64,000 nt of DNA from Candidatus Omnitrophota bacterium (GCA_041651455.1 JBAZJG010000002.1:49431-113430); one strand, 5' to 3'. Shown: positions 16,738 through 54,000, counted from the first letter of the stretch. Translations and numbers: made by a program. Notes: a model not told the origin generated them from the letters alone.

Positions 16738-19095
16738 ATGGGTAGTAAGCTGGATAAGTACGGTTATTTCGATAACGATAAGAAAGAATTCGTCATCACG
16801 AGGCCCGACACGCCTCTTCCGTGGATCAATTACCTCGGCTGCGAGCAGTATTGCGGCCTCATGTCGAACACCGCGGGCGGCTACAGCTTCTGGATAGACC
16901 CGCTCGAGAACAGGATACTGCGTTACAGGTATAATAATATCCCTTCCGACAGGGGCGGCAGGTACATCTACCTGAGGGACAACAAGTCCCGCGATTTCTG
17001 GTCCGCCTCGTGGCAGCCAGTCCTGAAAAGCCCCGATAAATACAAATACGAGTGCCGCCACGGCCTCGGGTATACCGTCATATCATCGGAATATTCCGGC
17101 ATAAAGACGAAGACATCATATTTCGTCCCGCTCGGGGAGAATCTCGAGATATGGATGATGGAGGTCGAGAACGCCTCGAAGAAAGACAGAGACCTTGACG
17201 TCATTTCTTTCGTGGAATTCTGCCTGCCGAACGCGCTCGAGGACATGACTAACTTCCAGGCGAACCTGAACACCGGCGAGACCGACTACGAGGACGGCAC
17301 CGTCTACAACATCAGCAAACACCGCGTTACGAAGGCGCATTTCTCGTTCTTTACCGTCGCCAACCAAAAGGTCAAGAGCTTCGACAGCAAACGCGACGAC
17401 TTCCTCGGGCCTTACGCCGACCTCAGCGCGCCGCGCGCCGTCGTGGAAGGCAAGGGCAAGAACGGCATCAGCTGCGGCTGGTCGCCGGTCGGGTCGCACA
17501 ATATAGGCCTTAAACTGAAGAAGGGCGAGTCGAAGACGGTGATATTCATCCTCGGCATCGCGCATTCGAGGAAAGAGGTCGACGGCTACAGGAAAAAATA
17601 TTCCACCAGGGCCAAAGTCCTCGACGCATTGAAAAACCTCAACGGGCACTGGGAGGAGAACCTCGACAAATTCAAGGTCGAGACGCCGGACGGCGACCTG
17701 GACCTGATGGCTAACATCTGGAACCAGTACCAGTGCCGCTCGACGTTCAACTGGTCGCGCTCGGCCTCGTACTATGAATCCGGCATCGGCCGCGGAATGG
17801 GTTTCCGCGATTCGAACCAGGACACGCTCGGTTTCGTGCATATGGTCCCGGAGAAGGTGAAGCAGAGGATAATCGACCTCGCCTCAACGCAGTTCGAGGA
17901 GGGCGACGCGCACCACCAGTATTCCCCGCTCACGAAGAAGGGCAGGGAGCGCGGATATTCCGACGACCACCTCTGGCTGATATATTCAGTCGCTGAATAT
18001 ATCAAGGAGACGGGAGATACCGGTTTTCTCTCCGAGACGATCCCTTACAATAATGATAAAAAAGGCACGCTGCTCGAACATCTCGAGAAGGCGATAGATT
18101 ATTCGGTCAAGAACACCGGGCCGCACGGCCTGCCGCTTTCCGGGTTCGCCGACTGGAACGACTGCCTTAACCTGCGCGGGCCTAACAACAAGGGCGAGTC
18201 GGTCCTGGTCGCGCAGATGCTCGTGCTGGCCGCGAAAGAGATGGCCGGCCTGCTGAAATTCGTGAAGGAGCCGAACAAGGCGGCGCGTTTCGACGAGATA
18301 GCGGAGCGCATGACGGAGAGGATAAACGAGGTTGCCTGGGACGGCGCGTGGTATGTCAGGGCTTACGACGACAACTCGAACGTGGTCGGCTCAAAAAAGA
18401 ACAAGGAAGGCAGGATATTCCTTGAGTCGCAGGGATGGGCCGTCATGTCGGGCGTGGCGCCGCAGGACAGGGCGATAAAGACGCTCGATTCGGTCGAAGA
18501 GCACCTTGCCACCGAGCACGGCGTCATCCTGCAGCAGCCGGCTTACAGCGATTACCATAAGAGTTTGGGCGACGTATCGTCATACCCGCCGGGGCTCAAG
18601 GAGAACGCCGGCATATTTTGCCATCCGAACCCGTGGGTCATGATAGCCGAATGCATCGCCGGGCGCGGCGACAGGGCGCTCTGGTATTACAAGGCGATAC
18701 TGCCGCCGTCTAAGGACCCGGATGTCCGCAGGGTAGAGCCGTATATCTATTGCCAGATGGTAGCCGGAAGGGACCATCCCGATTTCGGCGAGGGTAAGAA
18801 CTCGTGGCTTACCGGGACGTCGGCGTGGAATTTTGTCGCGGTCTCGAAGTATATAATCGGGATAAGGCCGGATTACGACGGACTTGTCGTAGACCCCTGC
18901 ATACCGGAAAAATGGGAGGGGTTCAGGGCGGCGAGGAAGTTCCGCAACGCCGTCTACGACATCTCGGTGGATAATCCCGGGCATGTCAGCAAGGGCGTAT
19001 CTTCGGTAAAGGTGGACGGGAAGTTCATAGAGGGGAACAAACTGCCCGTATTCAACGACGGCAAGAAGCATTCCGTCGAGATAACGATGGGCTAA
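16738..19095 (+). CDS. Cellobiose/cellodextrin phosphorylase (GH94)
   Basis: Near-collinear similarity to characterised cellobiose phosphorylases (FDNDKKEFVITRPDTPLPWINYLG, NTAGGYSF, IWNQYQC, SRSASYYESGIGRGMGFRDSNQD, GPHGLPL...ADWNDCLNL, NSWLTGTSAWNF, RPDYDGLVVDP). Confidence 0.9.
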   Translation: MGSKLDKYGYFDNDKKEFVITRPDTPLPWINYLGCEQYCGLMSNTAGGYSFWIDPLENRILRYRYNNIPSDRGGRYIYLRDNKSRDFWSASWQPVLKSPDKYKYECRHGLGYTVISSEYSGIKTKTSYFVPLGENLEIWMMEVENASKKDRDLDVISFVEFCLPNALEDMTNFQANLNTGETDYEDGTVYNISKHRVTKAHFSFFTVANQKVKSFDSKRDDFLGPYADLSAPRAVVEGKGKNGISCGWSPVGSHNIGLKLKKGESKTVIFILGIAHSRKEVDGYRKKYSTRAKVLDALKNLNGHWEENLDKFKVETPDGDLDLMANIWNQYQCRSTFNWSRSASYYESGIGRGMGFRDSNQDTLGFVHMVPEKVKQRIIDLASTQFEEGDAHHQYSPLTKKGRERGYSDDHLWLIYSVAEYIKETGDTGFLSETIPYNNDKKGTLLEHLEKAIDYSVKNTGPHGLPLSGFADWNDCLNLRGPNNKGESVLVAQMLVLAAKEMAGLLKFVKEPNKAARFDEIAERMTERINEVAWDGAWYVRAYDDNSNVVGSKKNKEGRIFLESQGWAVMSGVAPQDRAIKTLDSVEEHLATEHGVILQQPAYSDYHKSLGDVSSYPPGLKENAGIFCHPNPWVMIAECIAGRGDRALWYYKAILPPSKDPDVRRVEPYIYCQMVAGRDHPDFGEGKNSWLTGTSAWNFVAVSKYIIGIRPDYDGLVVDPCIPEKWEGFRAARKFRNAVYDISVDNPGHVSKGVSSVKVDGKFIEGNKLPVFNDGKKHSVEITMG

Positions 19096-36772: not shown

Positions 36773-36867
36773 GGAGCCATCCTCCGGGGGGACACCCTCG
36801 CAAAACAATTTGAAAGAAAACCATCTCCTTTTTCGTCTATTACGTATAAACAGAAAGGAGATTTGCC

Positions 36868-37452
36868 ATGCCAAGAAAACCCAGATGCCTGGTTGATGGC
36901 GGTTACTATCACATTATGAGCAGGGGACATAATAAATGTAAGTTATTCCATACCAGGAAGGATTATGAAAAATACAAGAGTTTGATAATTGAGCATAAAC
37001 GGACATTCCCCTGCGATATATACCATTATTGCCTGATGCCAAACCATGTCCATATCTTACTGAAAATTATGAATGGACGTAACTTGCCGGAACTCATGCA
37101 GCATATAAATCAGGAGTATGCAAGATATAGCAAAAGAAAACATGAAACTGTCGGCAATCTTTTTCAAGGGCGATACAAAGGTCTAATAATAGAAACAGAA
37201 GGATATCTTCTCGAATGCGGCAGGTATATTGAAAGGAATCCATTAAAAGCGGGACTTGAGACAGACCCGTCGCGATATATGTTTTCCAGCTATAGGTTCT
37301 ACGCGAAAGGGGAGGAGGATGATATGTTAACTCCCAATCCTCTTTTTGCGGAATTGTCTAGGTCCGAAGAAGAAAGGAGGAGAATCTACTCGGAATATGT
37401 GCTTAAAGAGAGGATGGAAGAGCATGTCAGAGACAGCAACTCTGGACCATAA
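36868..37452 (+). CDS. REP-associated tyrosine transposase (Y1 HuH, TnpA_REP)
   Basis: YHIMSRGH...YCLMPNHVHILL (HuH motif)...GRYIERNPLKAGL...Y motifs typical of IS200-like REP-associated transposases. Confidence 0.85.
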   Translation: MPRKPRCLVDGGYYHIMSRGHNKCKLFHTRKDYEKYKSLIIEHKRTFPCDIYHYCLMPNHVHILLKIMNGRNLPELMQHINQEYARYSKRKHETVGNLFQGRYKGLIIETEGYLLECGRYIERNPLKAGLETDPSRYMFSSYRFYAKGEEDDMLTPNPLFAELSRSEEERRRIYSEYVLKERMEEHVRDSNSGP

Positions 37453-37467
37453 GGAGCAAATGGAGGC

Positions 37468-37495
37468 CGAGGGTGTCCCCCCGGAGGATGGCTCC
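37468..37495 (-). repeat. REP element (inverted copy of 36773-36800)
   Basis: Exact reverse complement of the upstream 28-mer. Confidence 0.8.
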
Positions 37496-37507
37496 TTCTC
37501 TTTTTTC

Positions 37508-37540
37508 TTGACAAGTTATTGTGATTATGATAACTATAAT
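37508..37540 (+). promoter_or_regulatory. MerR-type-like promoter: -35 TTGACA (37508-37513), long 21-nt spacer containing the palindrome AGTTAT-N10-ATAACT (37514-37535), -10 TATAAT (37535-37540)
   Basis: Read from the sequence. A second identical-arm palindrome lies at 37568-37589 in the 5' leader of the downstream MerR-like gene. Confidence 0.45.
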
Positions 37541-37567
37541 ACAAAATATATGAATCATAAGAATAGC

Positions 37568-37589
37568 AGTTATGGTAATTACAATAACT
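37568..37589 (+). promoter_or_regulatory. Second AGTTAT-N10-ATAACT operator-like palindrome
   Basis: Arms identical to those of the palindrome at 37514-37535. Confidence 0.4.
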
Positions 37590-37613
37590 CTGTGAGGGAA
37601 GAAGCTCTATAAT

Positions 37614-37883
37614 ATGGGCCTAAAGCAGAAGCTTATATCCGCGCAGGAGATCATCAAGAAGTACGGCATAACCTACCAGACCGTAAACCACTATACGAAT
37701 TTCGGGCTCATCAACGTAATCACGAAAAAATCGAACGTCAGGCTCTACGACGAGGAAGAGGTGGACCGCCGCCTCACGAAGATAATCCAGCTCGCCGGGG
37801 CGGGCTTCCCGCTGCGGCTTATAAGGAAGACGTTAAACGACGAGCTCGCGGTGAAGGTCAACACCGGGACGGGTGGAGCATGA
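37614..37883 (+). CDS. Small MerR-family-like HTH protein (89 aa)
   Basis: ISAQEIIKKYGITYQTVNHYTNFGLI matches the MerR N-terminal HTH pattern (IxEvaxxxGvsxxTlRyYexxGLl). Confidence 0.55.
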   Translation: MGLKQKLISAQEIIKKYGITYQTVNHYTNFGLINVITKKSNVRLYDEEEVDRRLTKIIQLAGAGFPLRLIRKTLNDELAVKVNTGTGGA

Positions 37884-38749
37884 GCTACTTCAAGATACTG
37901 GGATTGGAGAAAGAGCCGTTCTCGACAAGCCCCGACCCTGAGTTCTTCTACCAGTCGCCGGAGCATAAGTCGGCGCTCTACCGGCTGCGCATCGCGATAG
38001 AGCTCAGAAGGGGCCTAAGCCTTGTGCTCGGAGATGTCGGGACCGGCAAGACGACATTGAGCAGGAAGCTCTCGCAACTCCTGTCCGAAGACCCGGGCCT
38101 CGTTATGGCGATGGTCCTTAATCCCGTATATGAATCTGAAAAGCAATTCTTGGCAGACCTTTCGGAGCGCTTCCATATTGTGGTGGATTCGGGGAATGGG
38201 AGCGCTCCAACGTTATTGGACTACATGAAGTCGTTCGAGAAGTTCCTGTTCGAGCAGGGGGTCCAGCAGGACAAGACGGTAGTCCTGCTCATCGACGAAT
38301 CCCAGAAGCTCAGCGACCCGTGCATGGAGATCCTGCGCGCGCTGCTGAACTACGAGACGAACGAATACAAGATCCTGCAGCTCGTGCTTATGGGGCAGAT
38401 GGAGCTGCTGCCCCGGATAAGCAGGATAAACAACATCTGGGACAGGATAGCGGTCAAGTATTTCATTAATCCGCTAGAGGAGGACGAGGTACGGGAGCTC
38501 ATAAACTTCCGCCTGCGGATGGCCGGGTACGTCTCGAGGCAGCCGCTCTTTGACGACGCGGCCATAAGGGCGGTCTTTAACCATACGCAGGGATATCCTC
38601 GCAAGATCGCGATGCTCTGCCACGACGCGCTCGAATACACGGTGATGTACAACAGGCACTGCGTCGACAGGCAGGTCATACATGACCTTATTCAACGCGA
38701 GATGAAAGCGGTGCAGGCGTTCCGCTATGTCTCGCAGGCGGCGGGCTGA
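37880..38749 (+). CDS. ExeA/GspA/MshM-like AAA+ ATPase (secretion/pilus assembly)
   Basis: Walker A LGDVGTGKTTL and Walker B VVLLIDESQ; ExeA-like length and layout. Confidence 0.8.
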   Translation: MSYFKILGLEKEPFSTSPDPEFFYQSPEHKSALYRLRIAIELRRGLSLVLGDVGTGKTTLSRKLSQLLSEDPGLVMAMVLNPVYESEKQFLADLSERFHIVVDSGNGSAPTLLDYMKSFEKFLFEQGVQQDKTVVLLIDESQKLSDPCMEILRALLNYETNEYKILQLVLMGQMELLPRISRINNIWDRIAVKYFINPLEEDEVRELINFRLRMAGYVSRQPLFDDAAIRAVFNHTQGYPRKIAMLCHDALEYTVMYNRHCVDRQVIHDLIQREMKAVQAFRYVSQAAG

Positions 38750-38750
38750 T

Positions 38751-39425
38751 ATGGCCGATACCGTATCTCCCGAAGAGAAGCTCTTTAATATAATCAAGGA
38801 AGGGAAGGATTCCGGCTCCGGCGGTGGAGTTTCAAAACCGAAGAATTCCTCGGCAATACTCGGGGGGATAAAGAAATTCTTCGGATCTTTGAAACTTCAC
38901 CCCGGCGCTAATAAGCAGGACGCTGCGGCGGCATCCGCGGCGCCCCGGATCGACATAGACCCGGGATCGGTAAACAGGGTGCTGTCGATAGTCCTGCTGG
39001 CGGTCGCGAGCTTCTTCGTATATTACCTTTTCAGCACGCGGCCCGATGCGGATAAGATAATAAAGTCCGTCCCGAAAACGGATACGGCCCTGAAGGCCGA
39101 GGTCGAGAGATTCGCTCCGCTGGAATCGTACCTCGCGGAGGCCAGGAGGAGGAACATCTTCAAACCGGTCCCGAAGGACGAGGGCAAAGCGACTCCGACA
39201 TCGAGAGAGGCGATGGAAAAACTGAAAGAAGCCGCCCGTGACCTGAAGGTCGTCGGGATCTCCTGGGGAGAGACCCCGAAAGCGCTGCTCCGCAGCGAAA
39301 AGGACAAGACGACATATTTCCTGAAACAGGGCCAGCAGGTCGGGACGATGGACGTGGATATAAGGACGATAACTAAGCAGAAAGTAACGATAGGATACAA
39401 GGCGGAAGAGTATGAGCTGCCTTAA
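38751..39425 (+). CDS. Bitopic membrane protein, candidate GspB/PilP-like partner of the ExeA-like ATPase
   Basis: Single TM (VLSIVLLAVASFFVYYLF) with a beta-rich periplasmic C-terminus; placed between exeA-like and secretin genes. Start trimmed to M9 to avoid overlap. Confidence 0.4.
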   Translation: MADTVSPEEKLFNIIKEGKDSGSGGGVSKPKNSSAILGGIKKFFGSLKLHPGANKQDAAAASAAPRIDIDPGSVNRVLSIVLLAVASFFVYYLFSTRPDADKIIKSVPKTDTALKAEVERFAPLESYLAEARRRNIFKPVPKDEGKATPTSREAMEKLKEAARDLKVVGISWGETPKALLRSEKDKTTYFLKQGQQVGTMDVDIRTITKQKVTIGYKAEEYELP

Positions 39426-39438
39426 AGGAGAAGCAAAT

Positions 39439-41043
39439 ATGAAAAGATTCGCAGGGTACGCGTTAATGGCCGCGGCGTTGCTGGTCGCCGCCGCGGCGGC
39501 ATGCCAATGGCCGCTCCCGCTTTCGGCGCAGAGCATTTCGGGCGAGCCGCGGAAGACGCTTTCGCAGTATGATTTCGAGGGGCTCTCGAAGAAGGTCTCC
39601 CTCGACCTGCGCGCGATGGACATGGTCGACGTCCTGAAGTTCCTCGCTATAGAGGGCAACCTGAATATCGTCGCCGGCAAGGAGGTCACCGGTCCGGTCA
39701 GCCTGCTGATAAATGATGTGGCCATAGGCGACGCGCTCGAGATGATACTCGCGCTGAACAATTTCGCGTATGAGGTGCAGGGCGGCATAATCAAGATAAT
39801 GCCTGCGAAGGACTACAAAGCGCTTTACGGCGTCGACTTCTACGACCAGAAGAAGACCGTGATACGCCGGCTGAAATACGCGTCCGCGAAGAACGTGGCG
39901 ACGATGATGGGAAGCGTCAAGAGCGACATCGGCAAGATAATCTACGACGATTCGACCGGGACTATAGTCATGATAGACACGCCCGCGAAGATCGCGGAGA
40001 TGGAGGAGATAATTAACGCGTCCGAGATGCCGACCGTCACGAGGATCCTGCCTACCGAGACGAAGGTCTTCGAGCTCAAGTACGCGCTCGCGGACAATAT
40101 TAAGGAGGAGGTCTCTAAGTCGCTGACCACGGATATCGGGACGATGCGCCTCGACAAGAGGACCAACACTATAGTAGTGACCGACCTGCCGCACCAGATG
40201 AAGAAGATAGAGACGGTCATAAACGCGTTCGACAGGAAGACGAGGGAGGTCTTTATCGAGGCGAAGATCGTAGAGGTCACGCTCTCCGACATGTTCCAGT
40301 GGGGAATCGACTGGAGCTATATATCGCAGTATACGCGCAAGATAAACGGGGAGAACAGGAGCTACCGAATAACTCCCGAGGCGAACCTTCCCATCGGGCT
40401 GACCGGCACATACGGCCAGCTGACGCTCGCCTCGATAAACACGGCGAACCTCGCGATGACCCTGCAGGCGCTTGATACCGTCGGCGAGACGAAGATACTT
40501 TCGAACCCGCACCTGACCGTCGAGGAGAACAGGGAAGCGACTATCAAGGTCATAGAGAAGCAGCCATACCAGCTCGAGACGACGACCACCGCTTCCGGAG
40601 GCACCACGACGACCTCGAAGAACTACGAGTTCGTGGACGTCGGCGTCACGCTCAATGTCAAGCCGCTTATAAACGAGGACGGTTTCATCAGCATGGTCAT
40701 AAAGCCCGAGGTCAGCTCGATATCGACCTGGTACGGCGGGGCCGCGCAGGCGGCGGGCTCGGTCCCTGTAGTCAAGTCCGCGAACGCCGAGACGACGGTC
40801 ACGATAAAGGACGGCGTCAGCATAATCATCGCCGGCCTTATCAAGGATAACAAGACGAAGACGGTCAACAAGCTGCCGGTCCTCGGCGACCTGCCGCTCG
40901 TGGGGCTGCTCTTCAAGAACATCAGCGATGACATCCGCAGGACGGAGACGGTCGTATTCCTAACGCCTAGGATAGTGCACGGCGACCAGCCGTTCCTGAT
41001 GGAGAGGGACACTGCGAAACCGACAAAGGGAATAAGAGAATAA
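39439..41043 (+). CDS. Secretin (GspD/PilQ/MshL family)
   Basis: Signal peptide from the ATG at 39439, which has an AAAGGAG Shine-Dalgarno. C-terminal secretin motif VNKLPVLGDLPLVGLLFKN...TETVVFLTPRIV. Confidence 0.85.
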   Translation: MKRFAGYALMAAALLVAAAAACQWPLPLSAQSISGEPRKTLSQYDFEGLSKKVSLDLRAMDMVDVLKFLAIEGNLNIVAGKEVTGPVSLLINDVAIGDALEMILALNNFAYEVQGGIIKIMPAKDYKALYGVDFYDQKKTVIRRLKYASAKNVATMMGSVKSDIGKIIYDDSTGTIVMIDTPAKIAEMEEIINASEMPTVTRILPTETKVFELKYALADNIKEEVSKSLTTDIGTMRLDKRTNTIVVTDLPHQMKKIETVINAFDRKTREVFIEAKIVEVTLSDMFQWGIDWSYISQYTRKINGENRSYRITPEANLPIGLTGTYGQLTLASINTANLAMTLQALDTVGETKILSNPHLTVEENREATIKVIEKQPYQLETTTTASGGTTTTSKNYEFVDVGVTLNVKPLINEDGFISMVIKPEVSSISTWYGGAAQAAGSVPVVKSANAETTVTIKDGVSIIIAGLIKDNKTKTVNKLPVLGDLPLVGLLFKNISDDIRRTETVVFLTPRIVHGDQPFLMERDTAKPTKGIRE

Positions 41044-41062
41044 GGTGAAGGAGGTGTTGAAT

Positions 41063-42094
41063 ATGAGGAAGGATTTCGCGCTTTTGCTGCTGTGTTTCAT
41101 GCTTACAGCGCATGCCGCGGGTGCCGACGACATCGATGACGTCATAAACAGGAACCTCACGATGCGGCAGCAGGTAGACGCGCTCGAGACAAAATGTTCG
41201 TCGCTCGAGAACGAGAGGGACGTGCTGATCTCGAGGGTAAAGGAGCTGCAGAGGAAGAACGACCTCCTCGCAAGAGGCGAGGCCGCCAAGGGCATAACGG
41301 TGACCCCGGCGGAGCTAAATGAGCTCAAGAAGAAGCTCGACGACGCCTCGAAGAAACTCTCCTCGGTCATGAAGGAGAGGGAAGCGATGCAGAAGGACCT
41401 CGATAAGGCCCAGAAGCAGCTCTCCGACATGGATAAGAAGATCGCCGCCGAGGTCCAGAAGAGGATCAAGGACATAAAGGCCGTGCCGGCGGGTTCCGAC
41501 AGGTCCGAGGCGATAAGGGCGCTTCAGCAGGAGAACGCCGCGCTGCAGGACGAGATAAACAGGCTGAAGGACGCGCTTAAAAAACAGGGGCAGCCGGCTG
41601 CCGGGCCGGGCAGCGACGTGAAGCCGGTGAAGACAAGGCAGCCGCAGGCGGACGCGGGGGATATCTCACAGGCCGAGGTCCTAAAGGTGCAGCTCGACAA
41701 GCTCGAGTCAGACCTGAAGAACGCGCAGAAGAACGCGGACGACGCGAAGAAGGAGAAGCAGGCCGCGGCGGCGCAGGCGAAGAAGATGAAGATAAAAACG
41801 GACAAGGAGAGGCTCGACATGCATTTCAACCTTGCGGTCGTCTATGAGAAGAACGGCATGTATGCCGACGCAGAACGGGAGTATTACAAGTGCCTCCAGA
41901 TAGACCCGAACGACGCGGAAGTCCATTACAACCTCGGCATTCTCTATGACGACAGGATGAACAAAACGAGCGCCGCGCTCGTGCATTACAAGAGGTACCT
42001 CGAGCTGAGGCCGAAGGGAGAGAGCTCGGAGGAAGTAAGGCAGTGGATATTCAACGCCGAACAGGAGGCGAGGTTGGGAGTGGAAGCGAGATAG
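41063..42094 (+). CDS. Secreted coiled-coil plus TPR protein (MshN/PilF-like pilus-assembly candidate)
   Basis: Signal peptide, long coiled coil, and C-terminal TPR repeats (AEREYYKCLQIDPNDAEVHYNLGILY). Confidence 0.55.
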   Translation: MRKDFALLLLCFMLTAHAAGADDIDDVINRNLTMRQQVDALETKCSSLENERDVLISRVKELQRKNDLLARGEAAKGITVTPAELNELKKKLDDASKKLSSVMKEREAMQKDLDKAQKQLSDMDKKIAAEVQKRIKDIKAVPAGSDRSEAIRALQQENAALQDEINRLKDALKKQGQPAAGPGSDVKPVKTRQPQADAGDISQAEVLKVQLDKLESDLKNAQKNADDAKKEKQAAAAQAKKMKIKTDKERLDMHFNLAVVYEKNGMYADAEREYYKCLQIDPNDAEVHYNLGILYDDRMNKTSAALVHYKRYLELRPKGESSEEVRQWIFNAEQEARLGVEAR

Positions 42095-43282
42095 ATGAAG
42101 ACAAGCTTCGCGGTATTATACGCCTTGGTCATAATAATCCCGACGGCGCTGCTTGCGTATTTCGGGCTGCTGGCGGTGCGAAGCGAGAAGTCGATCGTCG
42201 AGAGGAACATGATGCAGAAGTACGAGGCGATGGCAGGCCTCGTGGAAGGCGAGTTCAATAAAGCGCTTTCGGAGGCGCAGAAGGACCTTCTCGATAACCC
42301 GAAATACGTCGAGCATATGATCATAGAGCAGTCGGCGATATTCAAGGAAGACGTCGCGATACTCGACATGAACGGTAAGTCGCTCAGCGACGAAAGGGGA
42401 TCGGGACCGGTCTTCGTAAAGCAGGTAAAGGGATTTCCGTACCAGATAGCGGTATACGAGCGTTACCCGGTGGTCCTCAGCAAGATAAACGAAAGGCGGC
42501 AGAACCTATCCTTATATATCGGCATCATATATATATCCGCGTTCATGATATTGAGCGGGGCATTCGTGACGCTCTGGGCATTGTCGAGGCAGTGGAACCT
42601 GGCGCACATGAAGAACGAGTTCGTCTCGCACCTCGCGCATGACCTGCGCAGGCCGCTTACTTCGATACGCATGTTCTCCGAGATGCTGAAGACCGGGCGT
42701 GTCGCGGACGACGGGAAAAGAGCGGAATATTACGGCATAATATCGAACGAAAGCGAGAAACTCACGTTGCTCGCGAACAATATACTCGATTTTTCGCGCA
42801 TAGAGATGGGGCGCAAGAATTACAGGATAAAGAAGGAAGACATCGCGCGCATAGTCAACGAGACGGTGGACAGGTTCAGGTCGTATATGGTCGACGTCCC
42901 GCGCCAGGTCTCCGTGGACATCGAGGAAGGCCTTCCGCCGGTAAACGCCGACGAGAGCGCGATATCGCAGGTCGTGATGAACCTGCTCACGAATGCGGCG
43001 AAATATTCCTCGCAGGACAGCATCATCAGCGTTAAAGTCGCGCGGACGGACAGGAGCGTCGCGGTCAGCGTCGTCGACCACGGCATAGGCGTCCCGAAGG
43101 GCGAGTTGAAGAGGATATTCAGGAAGTATTACCGCGTCGAGCAGGACAAGGTCTCATCCACCGAGGGAAGCGGCCTCGGGCTCACGCTCGTAAAGTATAT
43201 CGCGGAAGCCCACGGCGGGCAGATACGCGCGGAGAGCGAAGAAGGAAAGGGCAGCAGGTTCACGCTGATATTACCGGTATGA
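42095..43282 (+). CDS. Sensor histidine kinase (2 TM, HisKA plus HATPase_c)
   Basis: H-box FVSHLAHDLRRPLTSI; N, G1 and G2 boxes (NLLTNAAKY, DHGIGVP, GSGLGL). Confidence 0.85.
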   Translation: MKTSFAVLYALVIIIPTALLAYFGLLAVRSEKSIVERNMMQKYEAMAGLVEGEFNKALSEAQKDLLDNPKYVEHMIIEQSAIFKEDVAILDMNGKSLSDERGSGPVFVKQVKGFPYQIAVYERYPVVLSKINERRQNLSLYIGIIYISAFMILSGAFVTLWALSRQWNLAHMKNEFVSHLAHDLRRPLTSIRMFSEMLKTGRVADDGKRAEYYGIISNESEKLTLLANNILDFSRIEMGRKNYRIKKEDIARIVNETVDRFRSYMVDVPRQVSVDIEEGLPPVNADESAISQVVMNLLTNAAKYSSQDSIISVKVARTDRSVAVSVVDHGIGVPKGELKRIFRKYYRVEQDKVSSTEGSGLGLTLVKYIAEAHGGQIRAESEEGKGSRFTLILPV

Positions 43283-43306
43283 GGGTGTCCCCCTTGAGGA
43301 TGGCTC
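43281..43306 (+). repeat. REP-like element copy (gagggtgtcccccttgaggatggctc)
   Basis: Differs at two positions from the 37469-37494 copy; sits at the stop of the kinase gene. Confidence 0.6.
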
Positions 43307-43312
43307 TGAAGA

Positions 43313-43987
43313 ATGCATAAGATACTGGTAGTCGAAGATGACAGGAACATACTGAAGGGGCTCGTCGACAACCTTGAGATGGAGGGCTATAAGGTCGTGA
43401 CGGCTCCGGACGGCGAGGCCGCGCTCAGGAAGGCGAAAGAGGCCGCGCCTGACCTGGTCATACTCGATATCATGATGCCGAAGATGAACGGTTTCGACGT
43501 ATGCCGGCAGCTTAAGGCGAAAGGCAGCACATTGCCTATAATAATACTCAGCGCGAAGGCGCAGGAAGCCGATAAAGTGCTCGGCCTCGAACTCGGAGCC
43601 GACGATTATGTTACTAAGCCCTTCAGCCCCAGGGAACTGCTTGTCAGGATAAAGGCGGTGTTGAGGAGGGCCGGCGCCCCGGCAAAGGTCAAGGACGTCT
43701 ATGATCTTGGCGGCATCAGGATAGATTTCAGCAAATACCTTATATATAAGGAAGGTAAAGAGGAGAAGCTCACCGCCGCGGAATATAAGATACTGAAACT
43801 GCTTATTGCCAACGAGGGTGAGCCGGTCAGCAGGCACACGATACTGGCGGAGATCTGGGGCGAGGACGTCACATCCCGCACGGTCGATACCCATATCTGG
43901 AGCCTGAGGGAGAAGATGGAGGAGGATCCGGGGAAGCCGAAGCACATCATCACGGTGCACAGGATAGGGTATAAGTTCGTGGAATAA
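43313..43987 (+). CDS. Response regulator, OmpR/PhoB family
   Basis: Receiver motifs (DLVILDIMMP) plus a winged-helix Trans_reg_C (TVDTHIWSLREKM). Confidence 0.9.
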   Translation: MHKILVVEDDRNILKGLVDNLEMEGYKVVTAPDGEAALRKAKEAAPDLVILDIMMPKMNGFDVCRQLKAKGSTLPIIILSAKAQEADKVLGLELGADDYVTKPFSPRELLVRIKAVLRRAGAPAKVKDVYDLGGIRIDFSKYLIYKEGKEEKLTAAEYKILKLLIANEGEPVSRHTILAEIWGEDVTSRTVDTHIWSLREKMEEDPGKPKHIITVHRIGYKFVE

Positions 43988-44880: not shown

Positions 44881-44905
44881 AGGTGTCCCCCGGGTGCATG
44901 GCCCC
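44881..44905 (+). repeat. REP-like element copy (aggtgtcccccgggtgcatggcccc)
   Basis: Shares the GGTGTCCCCC core with the other REP copies; immediately follows the stop codon. Confidence 0.5.
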
Positions 44906-45000: not shown

Positions 45001-48000
45001 ATGAATAAGCCGAAAACAGGGCAAGGTTACCGGTTTACTACAGTTGTATTGAGCTCGATACTTCTGCTGCTGAGCAGCGCCTATCTTTATATGGTATGGG
45101 CGGTAGAGACGAAGGCATGGGATTTCGCGACCGCTTCGGATTATACCGTGTACAAAGGAGACGGCAGCGAGGATACCGATAACGACTATATAATTGTCGA
45201 CGAAGGCGTCGCGAAGCTAGTCGCGCAGCTCGAGACGGAAAGCGACGACAGCCTTTCCGAATACGCGCAGGGCACGAAGTCATCCACGGTGACCGGCCCG
45301 GACACGAGCCTTGTCCTTACAAAGTCAGGCGGGGTGTATAATTCCACCGGCGAATACACATCGCGGGTTTTTGACGGCGGGGCAGGCGGGAACGTATGGA
45401 CGGCAGTAAAATCCTCTACATTTAACACGAATAACCGGGGCGGAGTTAGATGGGCTTTCGAGAACGGCCCGCTTACCGGATATGCCGTACTTTTGAACCG
45501 CGGAACGCAGTTCGATGCTAGTGCTATTTATTCCCCGTCCGTCATCAAAGACGGCGAGACATATAAGATGTGGTACACAGGAAATGTAAATAGCGTCTAT
45601 CGTATTGGTTATGCCACGTCCACCGACGGTTTGAACTGGACAAGGGTCGATGGGCCTCAGCAATATCTCTCCGTAATTAATATTTCGACAGACAGATTTG
45701 ATAAAAACCACGCAGGTTTTCCGTCCGTCATCAAAGACGGCGAGACATATAAGATGTGGTATTCGGGCTATAACGGCGAGTTCTGGCGCGTAGGCTACGC
45801 GACCTCCCCGGACGGGATAAACTGGACCAAATACGACGGCCCGGAAGCCGATTTGTCGGTACTGGACGTGAGTCTAGGCAGGTTCGACAGCGCCCATGCC
45901 TATGCCCCTACCGTCATAAAAGACGGTTCCGTTTACAGAATGTGGTATATGGGATTTGACGGAGACATCTATCGCATAGGCTACGCGACATCCCCTGACG
46001 GGATAAACTGGACCAAGGTTAACGGATATATGAGCGGCGGGGCGGTACTTGAGCCGGGACTCGACTTCGAATCGGGAGTCGTATATTATCCGTGCGTAAT
46101 AAAAGACGGATCATTTTATAAGATGTGGTATTACCAGACAGGGGTGATCAATTATGCCTTTTCCCCGGATGGGATAACATGGACAAAGGTAAACGGCCTA
46201 GCAAGAGTAGGAGGCGTCCTGGAGTACTATAGCCCTTACCAATTCTGCTCTAACTACTGCTCCTATCCGTGCGTAATAAAAGACGGTTCCACCTACAAGA
46301 TGTGGCCAGGCGGTAACGGCGTGGCTTTTGGCTATGCGACCAGCACGGAAGATACGATAGATACGACCTGGACGTATTTCCAGGTTCGATCCGGAACGAC
46401 GGCGAATCTGACCGATGGTTTTGTCGGGCCGGACGGCACGAGTGCCACTTACTATCCCGGCAATTACCACAAACTGGTTTCTGCGGGAAATTTTAACACT
46501 TCCCATCGCTACGCGCAGTTCAAGTTGTATATGTATACTTCAGGCGGCGGGCTCAATACCCCGGTCGTGGATTGGGCGGGTTTTACGGGCACTAAGGTAA
46601 ACCGTATAGACGATACGCTTTCGGATTTCAGTTCCGGGAGCTTTACGTCAAACACGACCACCCTTCCGGTCTCGGTCCAGACGCCTTTTGTCGGGTTGGC
46701 GCAAAAGGATAACGGCGAATACAACGCGGTCGGGTCATATACCAGCCGCGTATTCGACGGAGGGGACGGGGCCGTGTGGAACTCCATCGCGTGGACGAAA
46801 GGCATGAGCGCCATAGACCCGTCGGAAGAGACCGGGCTTGTGGGGTTGTATCACTTTGACAGCAGTGCCGCCGACTCGTCGGGACACGGGAACGACGGGA
46901 CGTGGACCGGTGCGCCCGCATATGATACTACGAACCAAAGGTTCGGCACGGGATGTTTTAAAAATAATGGCGGGGCTAATTATATAACGCTCCCGCTGTC
47001 CGATACCCTGAAGAGGATGGACGCTTTCACGTTTTCTTACTGGACCATGTATGATTTCGGCGAGAACAGTGCATTTTCGGTGGGGCTTTATGATAGCAGG
47101 AACACAAGCAAACAGGATATTTCCATTCAATCCTATGTAAACAGTGCGTATTTGTACGCCAGGGACAGGCAGCTTAACGCATTTGTCCACCTGACTAGCA
47201 GCTATCAATTATCATACTGGCTCTCGTACTATAAGGAATGGCAGCATATCGCCGTGACGTGGGACGGCGGGCCTGTTCCCCAGTCATTTGCCGTATATGT
47301 AAACGGCATCCAGCTCAACGTTGACTCCAAATATATTACCGATTCCTACAGCGCTTTCTACAAAATAAGGGAACTGCTATATCCTATCGAAATAGGCCAT
47401 TGCTATACTCCGAGCGCAGACAGGTATTTTTCGGGCTATGCGGACGAGATTGCGATATATAACAGGGCGCTCTCGGCCGATGAGATACTGAGGTTATACC
47501 AGAAGGGTGCCGGCATAAAGTTCCAGTGCCGCTCGTCTGCGACAAACCCTCCGACCGGGAATTTCGTAGGCCCGGACGGGACCGCGAACACGTATTACAG
47601 TACGGCGGCAGGTTCGAATTTCGGCGCCGAGATACCAGCCAACAGGTATTTCCAGTACAAGGCATATTTCGAGGGCTGCAATAGCAATACACCCGCGCTC
47701 GAGAGCGTGAAGGTGACGTATAACACTTCTTCGGATTTCACGGATGACAGCCGCAGCGAATTTGACGAAGGAAGCTACGACAACTCAAAGACGAAGTGCC
47801 ATTTGCCGGGAGTCTCCATCGAGAATACATATAAGGCAGGCGTGCTCCCGACGCCGGACGACGATCCGGGGCTTATAGCGCTCTATCATTTTGACGGGGA
47901 TCTCGTTGACGCGTCGGGTAACGGCCACAACGGCACGCTATATGACCCGAATAATTACATGCTATTCTTACCCAACTCGAAGGTAGGTTCATACGCATTT

Positions 48001-51000
48001 TATCATGGAAGCCAAAGCTATACGTATTATGCCAATCTCGGAACGATCGATACACCCGCGGATATGTCGATATCTTTCTGGTATAGGCCGGTTGGGACAG
48101 CGAGCGGTCCGCGCATACTCAGTGATTACAGTTCGGTAACAGGAAAATTCCAGAAGGATATAAGCTTCAACGCCGGAGACAGGCTCTGCTTTTCCCAATA
48201 TCATTCCGACGGTTCAGCCGTAAACGTTTATGCGGATTATGTAAGTATGAACAAATCTTTCCGCTGGCAGCATGTCGCTATCATAAGGGATGATACCGCG
48301 AAATCCATCAGGCTTTATGCCGATGGAAAGCTTGTCGGCACGTCCTATTATCCGGGAAAGACGGTCCTGCCGATCTCGGACGCCGGGGACCTGTATATAG
48401 GGCAGTACGGCAATCTTGTATCAAATTCTTACCAGTATATTTGCAGTATCGATGAGCTTGCCATATACAACCGTGTCTTGACCGAAGAAGAGATAATGAG
48501 TAAAGCGGGCATGCAGTATGTGCCGGGGGAAGGCAAGACATTTGCTTCAAGGACAATGGATGCCGGCCTTGCTGTCGACTGGAGCCGGGTCCTTTGGGGC
48601 GAGAATACATCCGGCTACGGCAACGGCCTGAACGGGACGCCGGTAACGGGCCAGGAGATCCAGGCCGACGAAAAGGGCCTTGTAGGATTATGGCACTTGA
48701 ACGGAGATTGGATCGATGTCATGGGCAGGAGGAACGGCACCCGTTATGGCACTACGGCCTTTGATTCGACGGGACAGAAGCTTGGTTCTGCGTGCGACAC
48801 GTTTGACGGAAGCACTCAGAGCGTGCTTTTCGGGAATATCGGGAGCACTATAAGGACGGTAGAATTTTGGCTTAATTCTACAAGTTATAATTGCTCGGTC
48901 ATGGAACTCAAGGATAACGATAACTATATAGGTATAGGGTATGTATCCTACTCTGATACGCGATATATAAAATTGACCGGCACGCCGTTGAGCTCGGGAA
49001 CCATCTATGTAAACGGGGATGTATACGGGCAGGCGAAGATAAATCCCGGCTGGAACCATGTCGTTATCGTTACGACCTCAGACATACCGGCCTCATCTAT
49101 GAGGCTCGGTGAAGCAGCCAACGTCTATTATAACGGCAAGCTCGATGAAGTTGCCGTATACAACCGTATTCTTTCACAAAGCGAGGCGAGGCAGCATTAT
49201 TTCGACCAGACCGGCGACGGCGGGCTGGTAGCCTTGTGGCATATGGACAACGACTGGACTGATGCCACCGGCAAGGGCCATGACGGTACCGCTTACAACG
49301 GAGCAACCTTTACCTCTGATTCAAAATTCGGAGCGGCGGCTGGAAGCTTTGACGGGACGGACGATTACGTAGTATTCAATGATGCCGATTTCCCGAAATA
49401 TTCCGGCGTGATGACCATCGAGGGATGGTTCAAGACTACCGCGGCGGCCAACCAGGCGATATTTTCCTATGGGACACCTGCGAATTCATTCAGCGTCCTT
49501 CTCTATATAGACGGCTCCAACACTCTCAGCAGTTACGCTTACTGCGTGCAGAGTCCGACCTTAGGGACCAGTTACACTAATATCCAGGCTAACGATGGGC
49601 AATGGCACCATTTTGCGGATGTCATGAGGTTCTACGACAGGCAAACCTCGGGCACGAGGATGTACCATTTCTTATATTTCGACGGGGAATACAGGAGTCA
49701 GTCTATTTGCTATACCTTGAGGGATACCGGAAGCGGCATATGGGTCGGTGCCCGCCCGGACGGGACGATGCCGTTTAACGGAAGCCTGGATGAGATAGCC
49801 GTATACAGCAGGTATTTGCATGGGCAGGAGATTGCGGACCACTACCTGCGCGGTGTGAACGATATAAAGATGCAGGTCTCGACTGACGGAGGAACTACCT
49901 GGAAAGACAACGAGGGCAGCGCCGGTAGCTATATAACCGAGACGCCCGCGTCGCTTAGCCTCGGCGGTCCTTCGCAGACCATAAAGTACCGCGCGACGCT
50001 ATCAACAACCGATTACAGGTACAGCCCGTTACTGAGGGGCGTAGATTTCAGCAAAGCGAGCTACCCGACCGACGACCCGTACGTGATACCCGATGCCGGG
50101 CAGGAGTATATAGGCTACCTGACATCGTTCACGCAGACGGTAGGCTCGAGGAACCTGGGCACGATCAAATACCTGCTTTCGAACGACGACGGTTCGACCT
50201 GGTACCGCTGGGACGGCTCCAACTGGGTCTCGACGACGTCAGGTTATGTCGCCGCAAATACGGCATCCGATATCAACACGAATATAGGGCAGTTCTACGA
50301 AGACGTCGGCGCCGGGACTCTCAACTTCAAGGCGTTCCTGCATTCAGACGGCATACAGCCCGTAGAGCTCGATAACGTGAGCCTCGGATATGCCCCGGGC
50401 AAGATAACGGTCACGACGCCGAACGGCGGCGAAACACTGCTGTCGGGCGGTTACGCCGATATCAAATGGACCGCCGCGGGTACCATAGCAAGCGATACGT
50501 GGGACCTCGCATATTCCACGGACGGCGGCTCGAATTGGACTCCTATAGCCGCCAACCAGTCAATAGCGGCCGTGGAAGGTGTATATACGTACAACTGGAG
50601 CAGCATACCTAATGTCCAATCGGTTACCACAAAGGTCAAGGTCACTAACAACGCGGAGAACAGCATACACGATGCTTCTAATGCCAACTTCACGCTGGCG
50701 CTCGGTTTCCAGGTGACCGCGCCGAACGGCGGGGAGAAATGGTATGTAGGCTCGAGCGGTAATAATATCCAGTGGAAGTCCTCGAGCGGCATGGGCACGA
50801 CGGTGCGACTGTATTACACGCTCAACGGCACCGATTATACCGCTATAACGACAAGCACGTCTAACCAGTATTCGGGCGTCAACACATACGCGTGGACGAT
50901 AGGTTCTTCGGCCTCGGACGACGGCCTTTATTCGGAAACCGCGAAGATAAAGGTGACGAACCAGAGCGGGCAGAATGAGGACGCCTCCGACGCCGTATTC

Positions 51001-54000
51001 ACCATGGCGGGCATGAAGCTTATCCAGCCGAACGGGAGCGAGCAGATAAAGAGGGGCGGAAGCTATGAGATACAGTGGAAGTCTGCCGGCGCCGGCAGTA
51101 CGGTAAAGCTGGAATATTCCACCGACAGCGGCGAGACCTGGAACACGATCACCGAGAGCGAATCCAATTCCGCCGGCACAGACAGCTATGAATGGAACGT
51201 TCCGGCCGGTTGCGAACTCTCCTCAGAGGCGAAAGTAAGGATAACTTCAAACAGCGACGCGAACCTGACGGACGCCTCGGACGGGATCTTCACGATCGCC
51301 GACCTTATTGTAAACTCCCCGAACGGCGGAGAGATATGGCAGGCGGGCAGTACGTCGAACCCGGTAACATGGGTTTTTGTCGGCTCTGCCGGCGTCGGAA
51401 AGGTTACGGTATCCTACTCTACCGACAGCGGCTCGACGTGGACGGTATACAATAATAATGTCGATAACCAGCAGGGGCCGAACAGCTACAACTGGACAGT
51501 CCCGTTCGCCCCGTCGGACAATATCAGGGTCAAGGTTGTGGACAATACGTCCGGCTCGACGATGGCGGACAGCTCCGACGGCAATTTCAGCATAGCGGGC
51601 GTTAAGGTGACGCTGCCGAACGGCTCAGAGACATACGGCATCGACAGCGCGAACTTCATCAGGTGGTCCGCAAATAACGCGAGCGATACCGGTGCGATCT
51701 ATTATTCGGTGGACGGCGGTTCTACTTGGAGCGCATCCCCGATAGTAGGAGCCGAAGAGGTATTGCTGAGCCAGGGCGCTACCGGTTTCAGCTGGACGCC
51801 TTCGAACGATCCGGGAACGGTTCCGACGGTCCAGGCGAGGGTCAAGGTTGTCGCGTTGACGCCGGCATCCGATGCGAATCCTCCGGTGCCGTTGACGCTG
51901 CCGATGGAAGACAGCTCTGACGCGAACTTTACTATACGGGGCCTGAGGGTCACGGCGCCGGCATTGAACGCCAGCTGGCTGCTGGGAAGCTCGCATGATA
52001 TCCAGTGGACCTCTGCAGGCACGACCGCCGAGACCGCCACATTGTACTATTCCGTCATCGGCGATTTCTCGGACCAGGTAGCCATAACGGCGACGCCTGT
52101 CACTAATAATGAGATATATCCCGGCAATAACAGCTATACATGGAATATTGGAGCGTCGGTCACCCCGTCGGCGACAGCGAAGATAAAGGTGACGGCGGGC
52201 GCTTATAACGCCCTGTCCCCGGCCTTCACATTGAAGGGCATAAAGGTCACTGCGCCGGCATCGGGCGCGACCGTGACACAGAACGTCGCTTCCTCGGTGA
52301 TATGGAGTTCGGCAGGGATTGACGGCAACGTCAACATATATTACAGCAGCGACAACGGCTCCACCTATTCAGAGACGCCTATAAACGCATCGCCGATAAA
52401 CATCACAGCCGGCACATATTCCTGGACGCCGAACACGGCGATACTGACTCCTTCAACGTCCGCGAAACTCAAGATACAGGTTGTCTCCGGTTCTGATTCG
52501 GGGCTTTTCGCGGAATCGGCGCAATTCACCCTGAAAGGCATAAAGATAAGCGCGCCTGCGGCCGGGACGACATGGGAACTGGGCCAGACCCAGAGCATAA
52601 CATGGACCGCGGCGGGGGTGGGCTCCACATGCAATATATATTACGCGGCTGACGGGACGAATTTCACAAGTACCGTCAATAGCTCGGCCGTACTGCTCTC
52701 CGCCGGGACATATTCCTGGACTATCCCGGCGTCGATTACGCCGTCGAACGGCACCGCGAAGATCAGGATAACCTCTGATACGAACGTTTCCTCGAGTTCC
52801 GGAGCGTTCACGATAAAAGGTATCAAGGTTACGAACCCTACCGCCACCACGATATGGGAAGTCGGGGAATCCGTGACGATATCGCACGCGGTTGTCGGAG
52901 CATTGAGCGCCCTTAATGTATATTACGTGAAAGACGGGATCGAGACCCAGATAGGCACGGTTATGCCTAACAGCAGTTTCCCCTGGGTCGTCACTGCCGA
53001 CGCGGAGGGGCCCGGTATCATAATCAGATTGAAGAGCTTCATGCCGAATTATACCGGCGACTCCCCGGCGTTTCAGATAGTCGGCGAGGCGTCTCTGGCC
53101 GTCAGCGAGCCGTCAGCAGCGTCCTCGTGGAAGGTCTCGGAGACGAATACCATAACCTGGACGAGGAGCGGCAGCACCGAAAGGACGTTTACCGTGGAGT
53201 ATGACGATAACGCGGCTTTCACCTCGCCCACGCCGATAACCGGCACGCCGGCGTATGACGGCGCGGGGCTATACAGCTTGGATTGGGCTGTCCCGGATAA
53301 CGTAGGTACGTGCTACATAAAGGTCACCGATACCGGAAATTCCAATATTACGGATATCTCCGAGGCGTTTAAGATAATACCGAAGTTCAGGGTCAATATA
53401 CCCAACGGCGGCGAGACGCTCTACGCGCTCAAGCCCGGTACGACCGTCAACTGGGGAACGACCGGAAGCGCGGGCACAGTGGACCTGTATTATTCGACGG
53501 ATACGCCCCTGTACGAGACATGGACAAAGATCAATTCCACGGCTATCCCCGATAACGGGACTGGGACCGTGGAGAGGATAACCAGCTACTCCTGGACCGT
53601 TCCGAATATCCAGAGTACTGTTGTCAAGATAAAGGTCCAGGCGAGCAGCGCGGGCCTGTCCGGGGCCTACGATGTCTCGGACGACGTGTTTACAATCAAG
53701 TATTATAAGGTTACATGGAACGTGAAGAGCGCGACGACCGGGGATCATCTCGACAAGCTCTTCGTCATAGATTCATCCGGTTGGTCGGAAGCAGACCTCA
53801 CTTCGCCGATCGAGCGTTATTACCCGTACGGCGATTCATACAACACGAACTGGTCGAGGGCGGACTATTTCGATAAGGCCGAACGCGGATGGGAGACCGA
53901 CCAGGACAACAAAGTGATCAATATAACGATGAGCGAGTCCTCGCTGGCGCCCGAATACCATGTCATGAGCAACTTCTCGTATAACGCCTCGCAGGACAAG

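Follow-up and report, generated by a model that had tools for sequence, protein, structure and literature searches.

Paired palindromes ahead of a minimal MerR-type HTH gene: a putative autoregulatory operator/regulator pair at a secretin operon of Candidatus Omnitrophota

Promoter, palindromes and operon in the window

The window, by which we mean the whole 64-kb stretch of Candidatus Omnitrophota DNA that was analysed, carries a perfect TTGACA and a perfect TATAAT separated by a 21-nt spacer that is filled by a palindrome of the form AGTTAT-N10-ATAACT (O1, in full AGTTATTGTGATTATGATAACT), and a second palindrome of the same form with identical arms (O2, in full AGTTATGGTAATTACAATAACT) lies in the leader of the gene that begins with the ATG at 37614 (Table 1). 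This arrangement had been described in the first-pass annotation, together with the AT-rich character of the promoter region and its contact with a REP/transposase element, and the coordinates bear it out in each respect: the promoter spans 37508-37540, T37535 is common to O1 and to TATAAT, giving the 21-nt spacer, the second palindrome is present where described, and the GC content is 26% at 37500-37599 vs 55-62% in the downstream genes, with a REP-like core directly upstream. An exact match to AGTTAT-N10-ATAACT is found at two places in the 64 kb and in none of 100 shuffles, and the same two sites are the only ones found in the window when up to two mismatches are allowed. Since O2 is self-complementary at 10 of 11 positions (O1 at 8 of 11, counted by eye), the N10 is not arbitrary and forms part of a 22-bp dyad; the two dyads are 54 bp apart from start to start.

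Transcription is predicted to start near 37547 if the TATAAT at 37535-37540 is used. An alternative TG-extended -10 lies at the 17-nt spacing, and its hexamer TAACTA is a poor -10 in the window, its final base being A; the corresponding element of the relatives reads TG-a-TAAGTT or TG-a-TACGTT. A consensus scan returned no other + strand promoter within 37514-37613, and no hexamer resembling a -35 was seen by eye 16-18 nt upstream of TATAAT. This region also holds two copies of the octamer CTATAATA, at the -10 (37534-37541) and directly against the ATG (37607-37614); the second copy is only loosely conserved in the relatives and is probably an AT-rich spacer between the Shine-Dalgarno-like stretch and the start codon.

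On the upstream side, a terminator-like hairpin is followed by a T-run that ends at the -35 and is invariant in 14 relatives. Hairpin and T-run are predicted to insulate the promoter from the RAYT and permease genes that lie before it, and the T-tract could act as an UP-like element. The REP-like 18-mer GTCCCCCCGGAGGATGGC forms an inverted pair around the RAYT gene, at 36776-36793 (-) and 37475-37492 (+), and two diverged intergenic copies lie after the kinase gene (43287-43304, +) and after a gene for a PpiC-type protein (44885-44902, +), so that 4 matches were found vs 0.11 expected. The RAYT gene has a GC content of 32-46% vs roughly 55% in the surrounding genes. We considered that the HTH gene might itself be part of the REP/RAYT element, and this was rejected, RAYT being present in just 8 of the 80 orthologous loci described below and adjoining the HTH gene on its upstream side in L001-L003 and L203 alone.

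Downstream of O2, Pfam confirmed the gene order given in the first-pass annotation, that is, an 89-aa MerR-type HTH gene (MerR_1) followed by genes for an ExeA-like ATPase (AAA_22), a secretin (Secretin) and a TPR protein. The ATPase matched AAA_22 at 1.8e-17 and its nearest NCBIfam model, the ExeA-like pepcterm_ATPase, at 7.6e-50, which is below the cut-off of that model, and the Secretin domain scored 2.2e-46. For the 232-aa protein between ATPase and secretin, a GspB/ExeB-like role can be guessed from position alone. From the HTH gene through the kinase gene, each gene overlaps or directly adjoins the next; the HTH stop codon overlaps the ATPase start codon (ATGA), the HTH gene being translationally coupled, and neither an internal consensus promoter nor a convincing + strand terminator was found between 37600 and 45100. 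Because the kinase gene abuts the TPR gene, both are probably carried on the same transcript. Downstream of the OmpR-type regulator follow the PpiC-type protein and a 3547-aa ORF (45001-55644), which might encode a cargo or surface protein of the secretin system. Neither pilins nor pilus-motor or T2SS core genes (PilB/GspE, PilC/GspF) were detected among the ORFs of the window scanned around the module, and the earlier label of a pilus module was rejected for this reason; the locus is better described as a secretin and assembly-factor operon than as a demonstrated pilus locus.

Table 1. Features at the promoter and along the operon, in coordinates of the window
Feature	Coordinates	Strand	Evidence or remark
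Y1_Tnp (RAYT) gene	36868-37452		Inverted REP-like 18-mers on both flanks
REP-like core (37475-92), its 3' part a terminator-like hairpin (37483-98), then T-run	37475-37507	+	Hairpin and repeat scans
-35 hexamer TTGACA	37508-37513	+	Read from the sequence
Operator O1 (putative), 22-bp dyad, halves AGTTATTGTGA and TTATGATAACT, occupying the entire -35/-10 spacer	37514-37535	.	28.9 bits (PWM)
Alternative TG-extended -10, TG-a-TAACTA, 17-nt spacing	37528-37536	+	Sequence and alignment of relatives
Consensus -10 TATAAT, 21 nt from the -35	37535-37540	+	Kept in the window, L001-3, L202, L007, L008
Operator O2 (putative), 22-bp dyad, halves AGTTATGGTAA and TTACAATAACT, in the leader	37568-37589	.	36.4 bits (PWM)
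Purine-rich Shine-Dalgarno-like stretch GAGGGAAGAAG	37594-37604	+	Kept in L001-3 and L201
89-aa minimal MerR-type winged-HTH protein, presumed autoregulator	37614-37883	+	Pfam MerR_1
ExeA/GspA/MshM-like P-loop ATPase (AAA_22)	37880-38749	+	Pfam/NCBIfam
232-aa protein with one hydrophobic segment, without family match	38727-39425	+	Adjoins the secretin gene at most loci
Secretin (Secretin, Secretin_N and STN domains; GspD/PilQ-like, below equivalog cut-offs)	39412-41043	+	
Coiled-coil and TPR protein, weak Tgl/PilW-like TPR similarity	41045-42094	+	
Histidine kinase	42095-43282	+	
OmpR-type response regulator	43313-43987	+	

The HTH protein family and its dyad across Omnitrophota

The 89-aa protein matched MerR_1 with an E-value of 2.7e-9 (37.4 bits, cut-off 21.6), and all 27 family members that were aligned match this model too. 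Its AlphaFold2 monomer model (pLDDT 79.5) consists of a strand, helices 1 and 2, a beta-hairpin wing and helices 3 and 4, and shows nothing past helix 4, neither a fifth helix nor a coiled-coil helix. Orthologues at 77 loci are 69-92 aa long, 6-9 residues precede the first strand and most sequences end about 57 residues after a conserved YQ anchor, which leaves no residues for an effector domain beyond the winged HTH in the 77 orthologues or in the model. Almost no variation is seen in the recognition helix region, TYQT[VI]NHYT, in keeping with the conserved site. A Foldseek search against the PDB returned MerR-type winged HTH domains alone, with the best mutual TM-scores (0.74-0.80) for DNA-bound TnrA and GlnR (4r24, 4r22, 4r4e) and further matches to BldC (6ama, 6amk), RacA, MtaN, SoxR, CueR and BmrR; by profile, the best PDB match was GlnR (3.9e-5), BldC reaching just 0.85. 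Judging from this model and these matches, the protein is best filed as a member of an uncharacterised, Omnitrophota-centred family in the coil-less branch of MerR-type winged HTH proteins.

In database searches the family is compact. A word-indexed search gave 76 homologues of 68-96 aa, almost all of those with a named source being Candidatus Omnitrophota, and an exhaustive profile search of 1.84 billion representatives gave only 88 clusters (50% identity) at E <=1e-10, the strong matches being mostly short (65-126 aa). A C-terminal tail of about 13 residues (NDELAVKV...GG; residues 76-89, 37839-37880) was found only in the clade of the window, in which two dyads are present and 65-70 residues follow the YQ anchor vs 54-61 in 68 other loci. 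This correlation suggests that the tail may have a part in linking the proteins bound at O1 and O2, and it is confounded by phylogeny, the tail being confined to one clade.

Some loci carry additional copies of the gene. A second HTH paralogue (45-47% identity) directly follows the TPR gene in L027 (8349-8561) and L070 (11878-12093), and such internal paralogues have neither a promoter nor a dyad of their own. L013 and L014, 9 kb apart on one contig, are a pair of complete HTH-secretin units, and a separate dyad belongs to each.

A genome scan yielded 80 loci from Omnitrophota MAGs (about 12 kb each, 735 kb together), in most of which the order of HTH gene, ExeA-like gene, 232-aa homologue, secretin gene and often TPR gene is kept, and a kinase/regulator pair is frequently found upstream of the HTH gene. 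Reading each locus individually showed that the palindrome recurs in the 160 nt upstream of HTH genes, with the consensus A-n-TTAT-n-GTA-nn-TAC-n-ATAA-n-T over 83 distinct sites. A scan of the 735 kb for 22-mers with up to 6 mismatches to AGTTATGGTAATTACCATAACT gave 89 matches, of which 85 precede an HTH gene by no more than 220 nt and 4 lie at or beside one, and it placed a site at 67 of 77 loci. A position weight matrix built from the 83 orthologous sites gave 9 matches of at least 12 bits in 713,554 background positions, and O2 and O1 are the sole sites in the window that score above the lowest training site. No further operator sites were found in the 64-kb window, the next-best candidate (GCTTACAGCGATTACCATAAGA, 18541-18562), which lies inside the ORF 16738-19095 and is probably due to chance, scoring 12.3 bits, below the lowest training site.

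L005, L006, L009, L017 and L204 retain the HTH gene together with its two dyads and have no secretin module downstream. In these comparisons the dyad tracks the HTH gene and not the secretin genes, and the regulator outlives its neighbouring operon; as it persists in relatives devoid of the module, its main target may lie elsewhere. In place of the module, these relatives (L005 6001-12264; L204 1390-3593; L006, L009 and L017) have genes of the cold-shock, radical-SAM and YchF-like kinds, and in L007/L008 (6264-6743) the ExeA-like gene is shortened to 159 aa.

Several features of individual sites were also recorded. In the 83 aligned dyads the flanks often extend the symmetry (GGTA-N5-GGTA-N2-TACC-N5-TACC), and the left half-site TTATGGTA resembles a TG-extended -10 (TGnTA...). 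In L078 (2655-2710), three or four head-to-tail repeats of TTATAGTATA with a period of 10 bp replace the dyad downstream of a normal TTGACA/TGgTATATT promoter, a direct-repeat layout like that of BldC, which hints that monomers might bind half-sites without a fixed dimer geometry. A reverse search of all metagenome contigs with the core TTATGGTANNTACCATAA gave at least 120 matches, and two of those listed adjoin an HTH homologue; since a rough estimate gives about this many chance matches for 16 specified bases in a collection of such size, the search is uninformative and provides no argument against a lineage-specific linkage. A longer identical palindrome, TTATGGTAGCTACCATAATGTA, was found in several unrelated metagenome contigs (L083, L112, L118, L146, L158, L164, L177 and L196), with no HTH homologue nearby, and may be a repeat or an operator of another organism.

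Within the 83 sites, conserved blocks (A1, T3-T6, G8-A10, T13-C15, A17-A20 and T22) alternate with free positions (2/21, 7/16 and 11/12), at which the two arms vary independently. Positions 2/21, for instance, show GG (19), CG (12), GC (11) and CC (10); 50 of the 83 sequences are unpaired there, and no covariation was detected at the free symmetric positions, the observed score being reached by 143 of 500 shuffles. Together with the RNA-level results given below, this pattern is the signature of a protein-binding dyad and not of an RNA structure.

The position of the dyad relative to the promoter varies among the loci. An exact TTGACA was recovered from 69 of the 77 upstream regions vs 8% of control windows, and the commonest class has TTGACA, then TGnTATAyT at 16-18 nt, then the dyad. 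Measured from the -35 in 67 loci, the start of the first dyad lies at 22-28 nt in 30 (mode 26), at 29-40 nt in 17, within the spacer at 0-3 nt in 11, at 4-21 nt in 7 and beyond 40 nt in 2, and in none of them is it upstream of the -35. The offsets cluster at 0, 8-9, 18, 26-27, 35-36, 45 and 54 nt, that is, in steps of about 9 bp. Because a -10 at normal spacing precedes the dyad, the site lies over or just past the transcription start in 47 of the 67 loci (22-40 nt). The ancestral or majority layout is thus a strong, normally spaced promoter whose predicted start site lies under the dyad, which is the textbook position for a repressor.

The clade of the window comprises 14 sequences with two dyads and O1 set directly against TTGACA (the window, L001-3, L005-9, L017 and four contigs recruited by protein identity), and it occurs in two promoter states. 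Seven sequences (the window, L001-3, L202, L007 and L008) have TATAAT at 21 nt and a 17-nt hexamer that ends in A (TAACTA, TAAGTA or TATTTA). The other seven (L201, L203, L204, L005, L006, L009 and L017) have no TATAAT, and the right arm of O1 itself provides a TG-extended -10 at 17 nt. The distance between O1 and O2 is 54 or 45 bp, which amounts to a 9-bp indel, and in a neighbour-joining tree both this distance and the -10 state switch several times, the 21-nt TATAAT occurring in three branches. Outside this clade, L059 and L065 have the dyad within an ordinary 17-nt spacer. The over-long spacer, whose length in orthologous loci had been proposed as a check on the earlier interpretation, is kept in half of the 14 sequences of the clade, and a 17-nt spacer is found in the other half and in L059 and L065.

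Candidate autorepression and alternative explanations

The explanation that we favour, and regard as reasonably probable, is that O1 and O2 are operators of the downstream 89-aa protein, which by binding them would repress its own secretin operon. We infer autoregulation because the palindromes are tied to the HTH gene that heads a tightly packed secretin operon, and this linkage of dyad and HTH gene at 67 of 77 loci makes an autoregulatory operator/regulator pair a well-supported assignment. The proposal of an autoregulated pilus/secretin switch in the first-pass annotation is thereby retained in its autoregulatory part, and its pilus part was abandoned, no pilus genes having been found. By analogy with GlnR and TnrA, a symmetric dimer would occupy each 22-bp dyad with one monomer per half-site of about 10 bp (TTAT-n-GTA). 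Protein bound at O1 would cover the spacer and the upstream edge of the -10 and would exclude RNA polymerase, and O2, some five helical turns further on within the first stretch to be transcribed, could contribute through cooperative binding, looping or a roadblock. The expected outcome would be negative feedback on a single transcript extending from the regulator through at least the histidine kinase. Since promoters of the family are near consensus (TTGACA in 69 of 77 together with TGnTATAyT), no activator would be needed. Relative to the promoter, the sites of the family are all placed as expected for a repressor. Given the head-to-tail half-sites of L078, binding may resemble that of BldC more than that of a symmetric dimer.

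Simple repression does not account for the conserved 21-nt TATAAT found in seven sequences and three branches, which makes the -10 and the start site assigned here tentative. This TATAAT is either the real -10 of a weak promoter without a usable -35, or it is used with the assistance of the HTH protein. The latter would correspond to the first-pass annotation, which had read the long, palindrome-filled spacer as the layout of a MerR-activated promoter. On this model the 21-nt promoter would be inactive alone, and the regulator, once on O1, would align the hexamers by bending the spacer or making it shorter; in a variant of this explanation, limited like it to the sub-lineage of the window, the protein might both repress and activate, depending on a partner. 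The perfect hexamers with a dyad that exactly fills the 21 nt between them, the persistence of TATAAT in seven sequences whose 17-nt hexamer is poor, and the MerR-type winged HTH are all compatible with it, and BldC, a relative that likewise has no coil, is known to distort DNA strongly and to shorten it (PMC5859096). However, the coiled coil and the effector domain are absent across the family (69-92 aa), 21 nt exceeds the classical 19-20 nt, O1 lies in 17-nt spacers in 7 of the 14 close relatives, as the dyad does in L059 and L065, the majority layout (47 of 67 dyads past the -10) combines a normal promoter with a dyad that covers the start site, and O2 would have no role. Altogether, MerR-style activation is not supported and is unlikely, keeping a small probability for this sub-lineage.

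It is also conceivable, with a chance that we put at the low end, that another factor, such as the neighbouring response regulator or a global regulator, binds the dyads and that the HTH protein has a different role. A histidine kinase/response regulator pair does adjoin the HTH gene in many loci, which would supply a candidate. Nevertheless, the dyads persist in loci without a kinase/regulator match within 12 kb (for example L010-L012, L005 and L204), they are missing before the internal HTH paralogues that have no promoter of their own, and the nearly invariant recognition helix region matches the conservation of the site. OmpR-type regulators usually bind direct repeats, and this habit counts against the neighbouring response regulator in particular.

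More speculative still, and in our view quite improbable, is a scheme for the 21-nt lineages in which the coil-less 89-aa protein would do the job of a MerR activator: dimers at O1 and O2 would be bridged by the 13-residue tail, about 75 bp of promoter DNA would be wrapped or shortened in the manner of BldC filaments, and the hexamers would be brought into register, the state being perhaps set by the coupled ExeA-like ATPase instead of a small ligand. If true, a state set by the ATPase would couple secretin assembly to the expression of the operon. Finally, a role of the palindrome at the RNA level, through a hairpin in the 5' leader that affects mRNA stability or translation, is very hard to credit: the dyad is transcribed in most loci and a short hairpin is possible at O2, but O1 lies upstream of any plausible transcription start, covariation is absent with 50 of 83 sequences unpaired at 2/21, and the leader folds no better than shuffles (z = -0.55) and has no match in Rfam.

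Significance and comparison with known systems

Under the favoured explanation of autorepression, an HTH protein that regulates itself through palindromic operators represents an ordinary mechanism, and the value of the present analysis lies in a testable, phylum-wide model of regulator, operator and promoter. The literature searched contained no description of a regulator/operator pair for Omnitrophota, and a search for Omnitrophota together with secretin or type IV pili gave nothing relevant. For these uncultured bacteria, the analysis provides a cis-element found across the phylum, a candidate binder and a promoter model, namely a near-consensus sigma-70-type promoter of the form TTGACA-N16-18-TGnTATAyT. 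Moreover, the family would be a compact addition to the small set of coil-less MerR-type proteins, and the conserved ExeA-like/secretin/TPR operon is marked as a putatively regulated unit. This operon may be relevant to the biology of the cell surface in these bacteria, which are very small and perhaps dependent on hosts.

Regarding the operon, the set of ATPase, protein with one hydrophobic segment, secretin and TPR protein resembles the secretin-assembly factors ExeA/ExeB (GspA/GspB) and the MshL/MshM/MshN proteins of the MSHA system (PMC4098917, PMC9239104). It differs from them in that no NCBIfam match reaches its equivalog cut-off, no family could be detected for the 232-aa protein and T2SS or pilus core genes are absent nearby.

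Regarding the regulator, classical MerR proteins combine a winged HTH with a long antiparallel coiled coil and a C-terminal effector domain and act at promoters with 19-20-bp spacers (PMC5859096). The protein described here shares the MerR_1 winged HTH with such activators (MerR, CueR, SoxR, BmrR, MtaN), and the over-long spacer filled by a dyad in the window is a further likeness; in contrast, it lacks the antiparallel coiled coil and the effector domain, the spacer measures 21 nt in the window and 17 nt in the sister sequences, the dyad lies past the -10 in most loci, and a second operator is present. CvkR, the MerR-type plain repressor of type V-K CAST systems, acts on a conserved palindromic motif at promoters (PMC9938897) and is similar in being a winged-HTH plain repressor, as proposed here, with a palindromic promoter motif, whereas it has 150 aa with its own dimerisation domain and a C-terminal helix, and its motif and genomic context are unrelated.

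Closer in architecture are the MerR-type proteins without a coiled coil, BldC, TnrA and GlnR (PMC5859096). BldC of Streptomyces (68 aa) consists of a winged HTH alone, is of similar size and was among the structural matches (6ama, 6amk), and the head-to-tail half-sites of L078 with their 10-bp period recall its sites. Nonetheless, BldC forms head-to-tail multimers on direct repeats, unlike the inverted repeats found in the window and at 67 loci, and its profile E-value was only 0.85.

On its own GlnR is a monomer; two copies pair only when they meet on the 21-bp palindrome of the operator, and the bound protein acts as a repressor (PMC9249791). Its sites are palindromes of 17-21 bp, and its gene shares an operon with glutamine synthetase (PMC9249791, PMC4335299). 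The differences from GlnR and TnrA are clear: their box is TGTNAN7TNACA (PMC9249791) vs TTATnGTA-nn-TACnATAA here, the glutamine-synthetase-binding C-terminal tail is missing and most members stop after helix 4, no clear extra N-terminal helix was seen, the genomic context is a secretin operon, and the sequence similarity is just E ~4e-5 and confined to the HTH. At the same time, GlnR and TnrA share the coil-less MerR-type winged HTH, and provide both the best structural (TM 0.74-0.80) and the best profile match; the conserved 22-bp dyad linked to the HTH gene may be bound in a similar way, by a dimer formed on DNA. Overall, these likenesses indicate that the element of Omnitrophota may work in the manner of a GlnR-type autorepressor.
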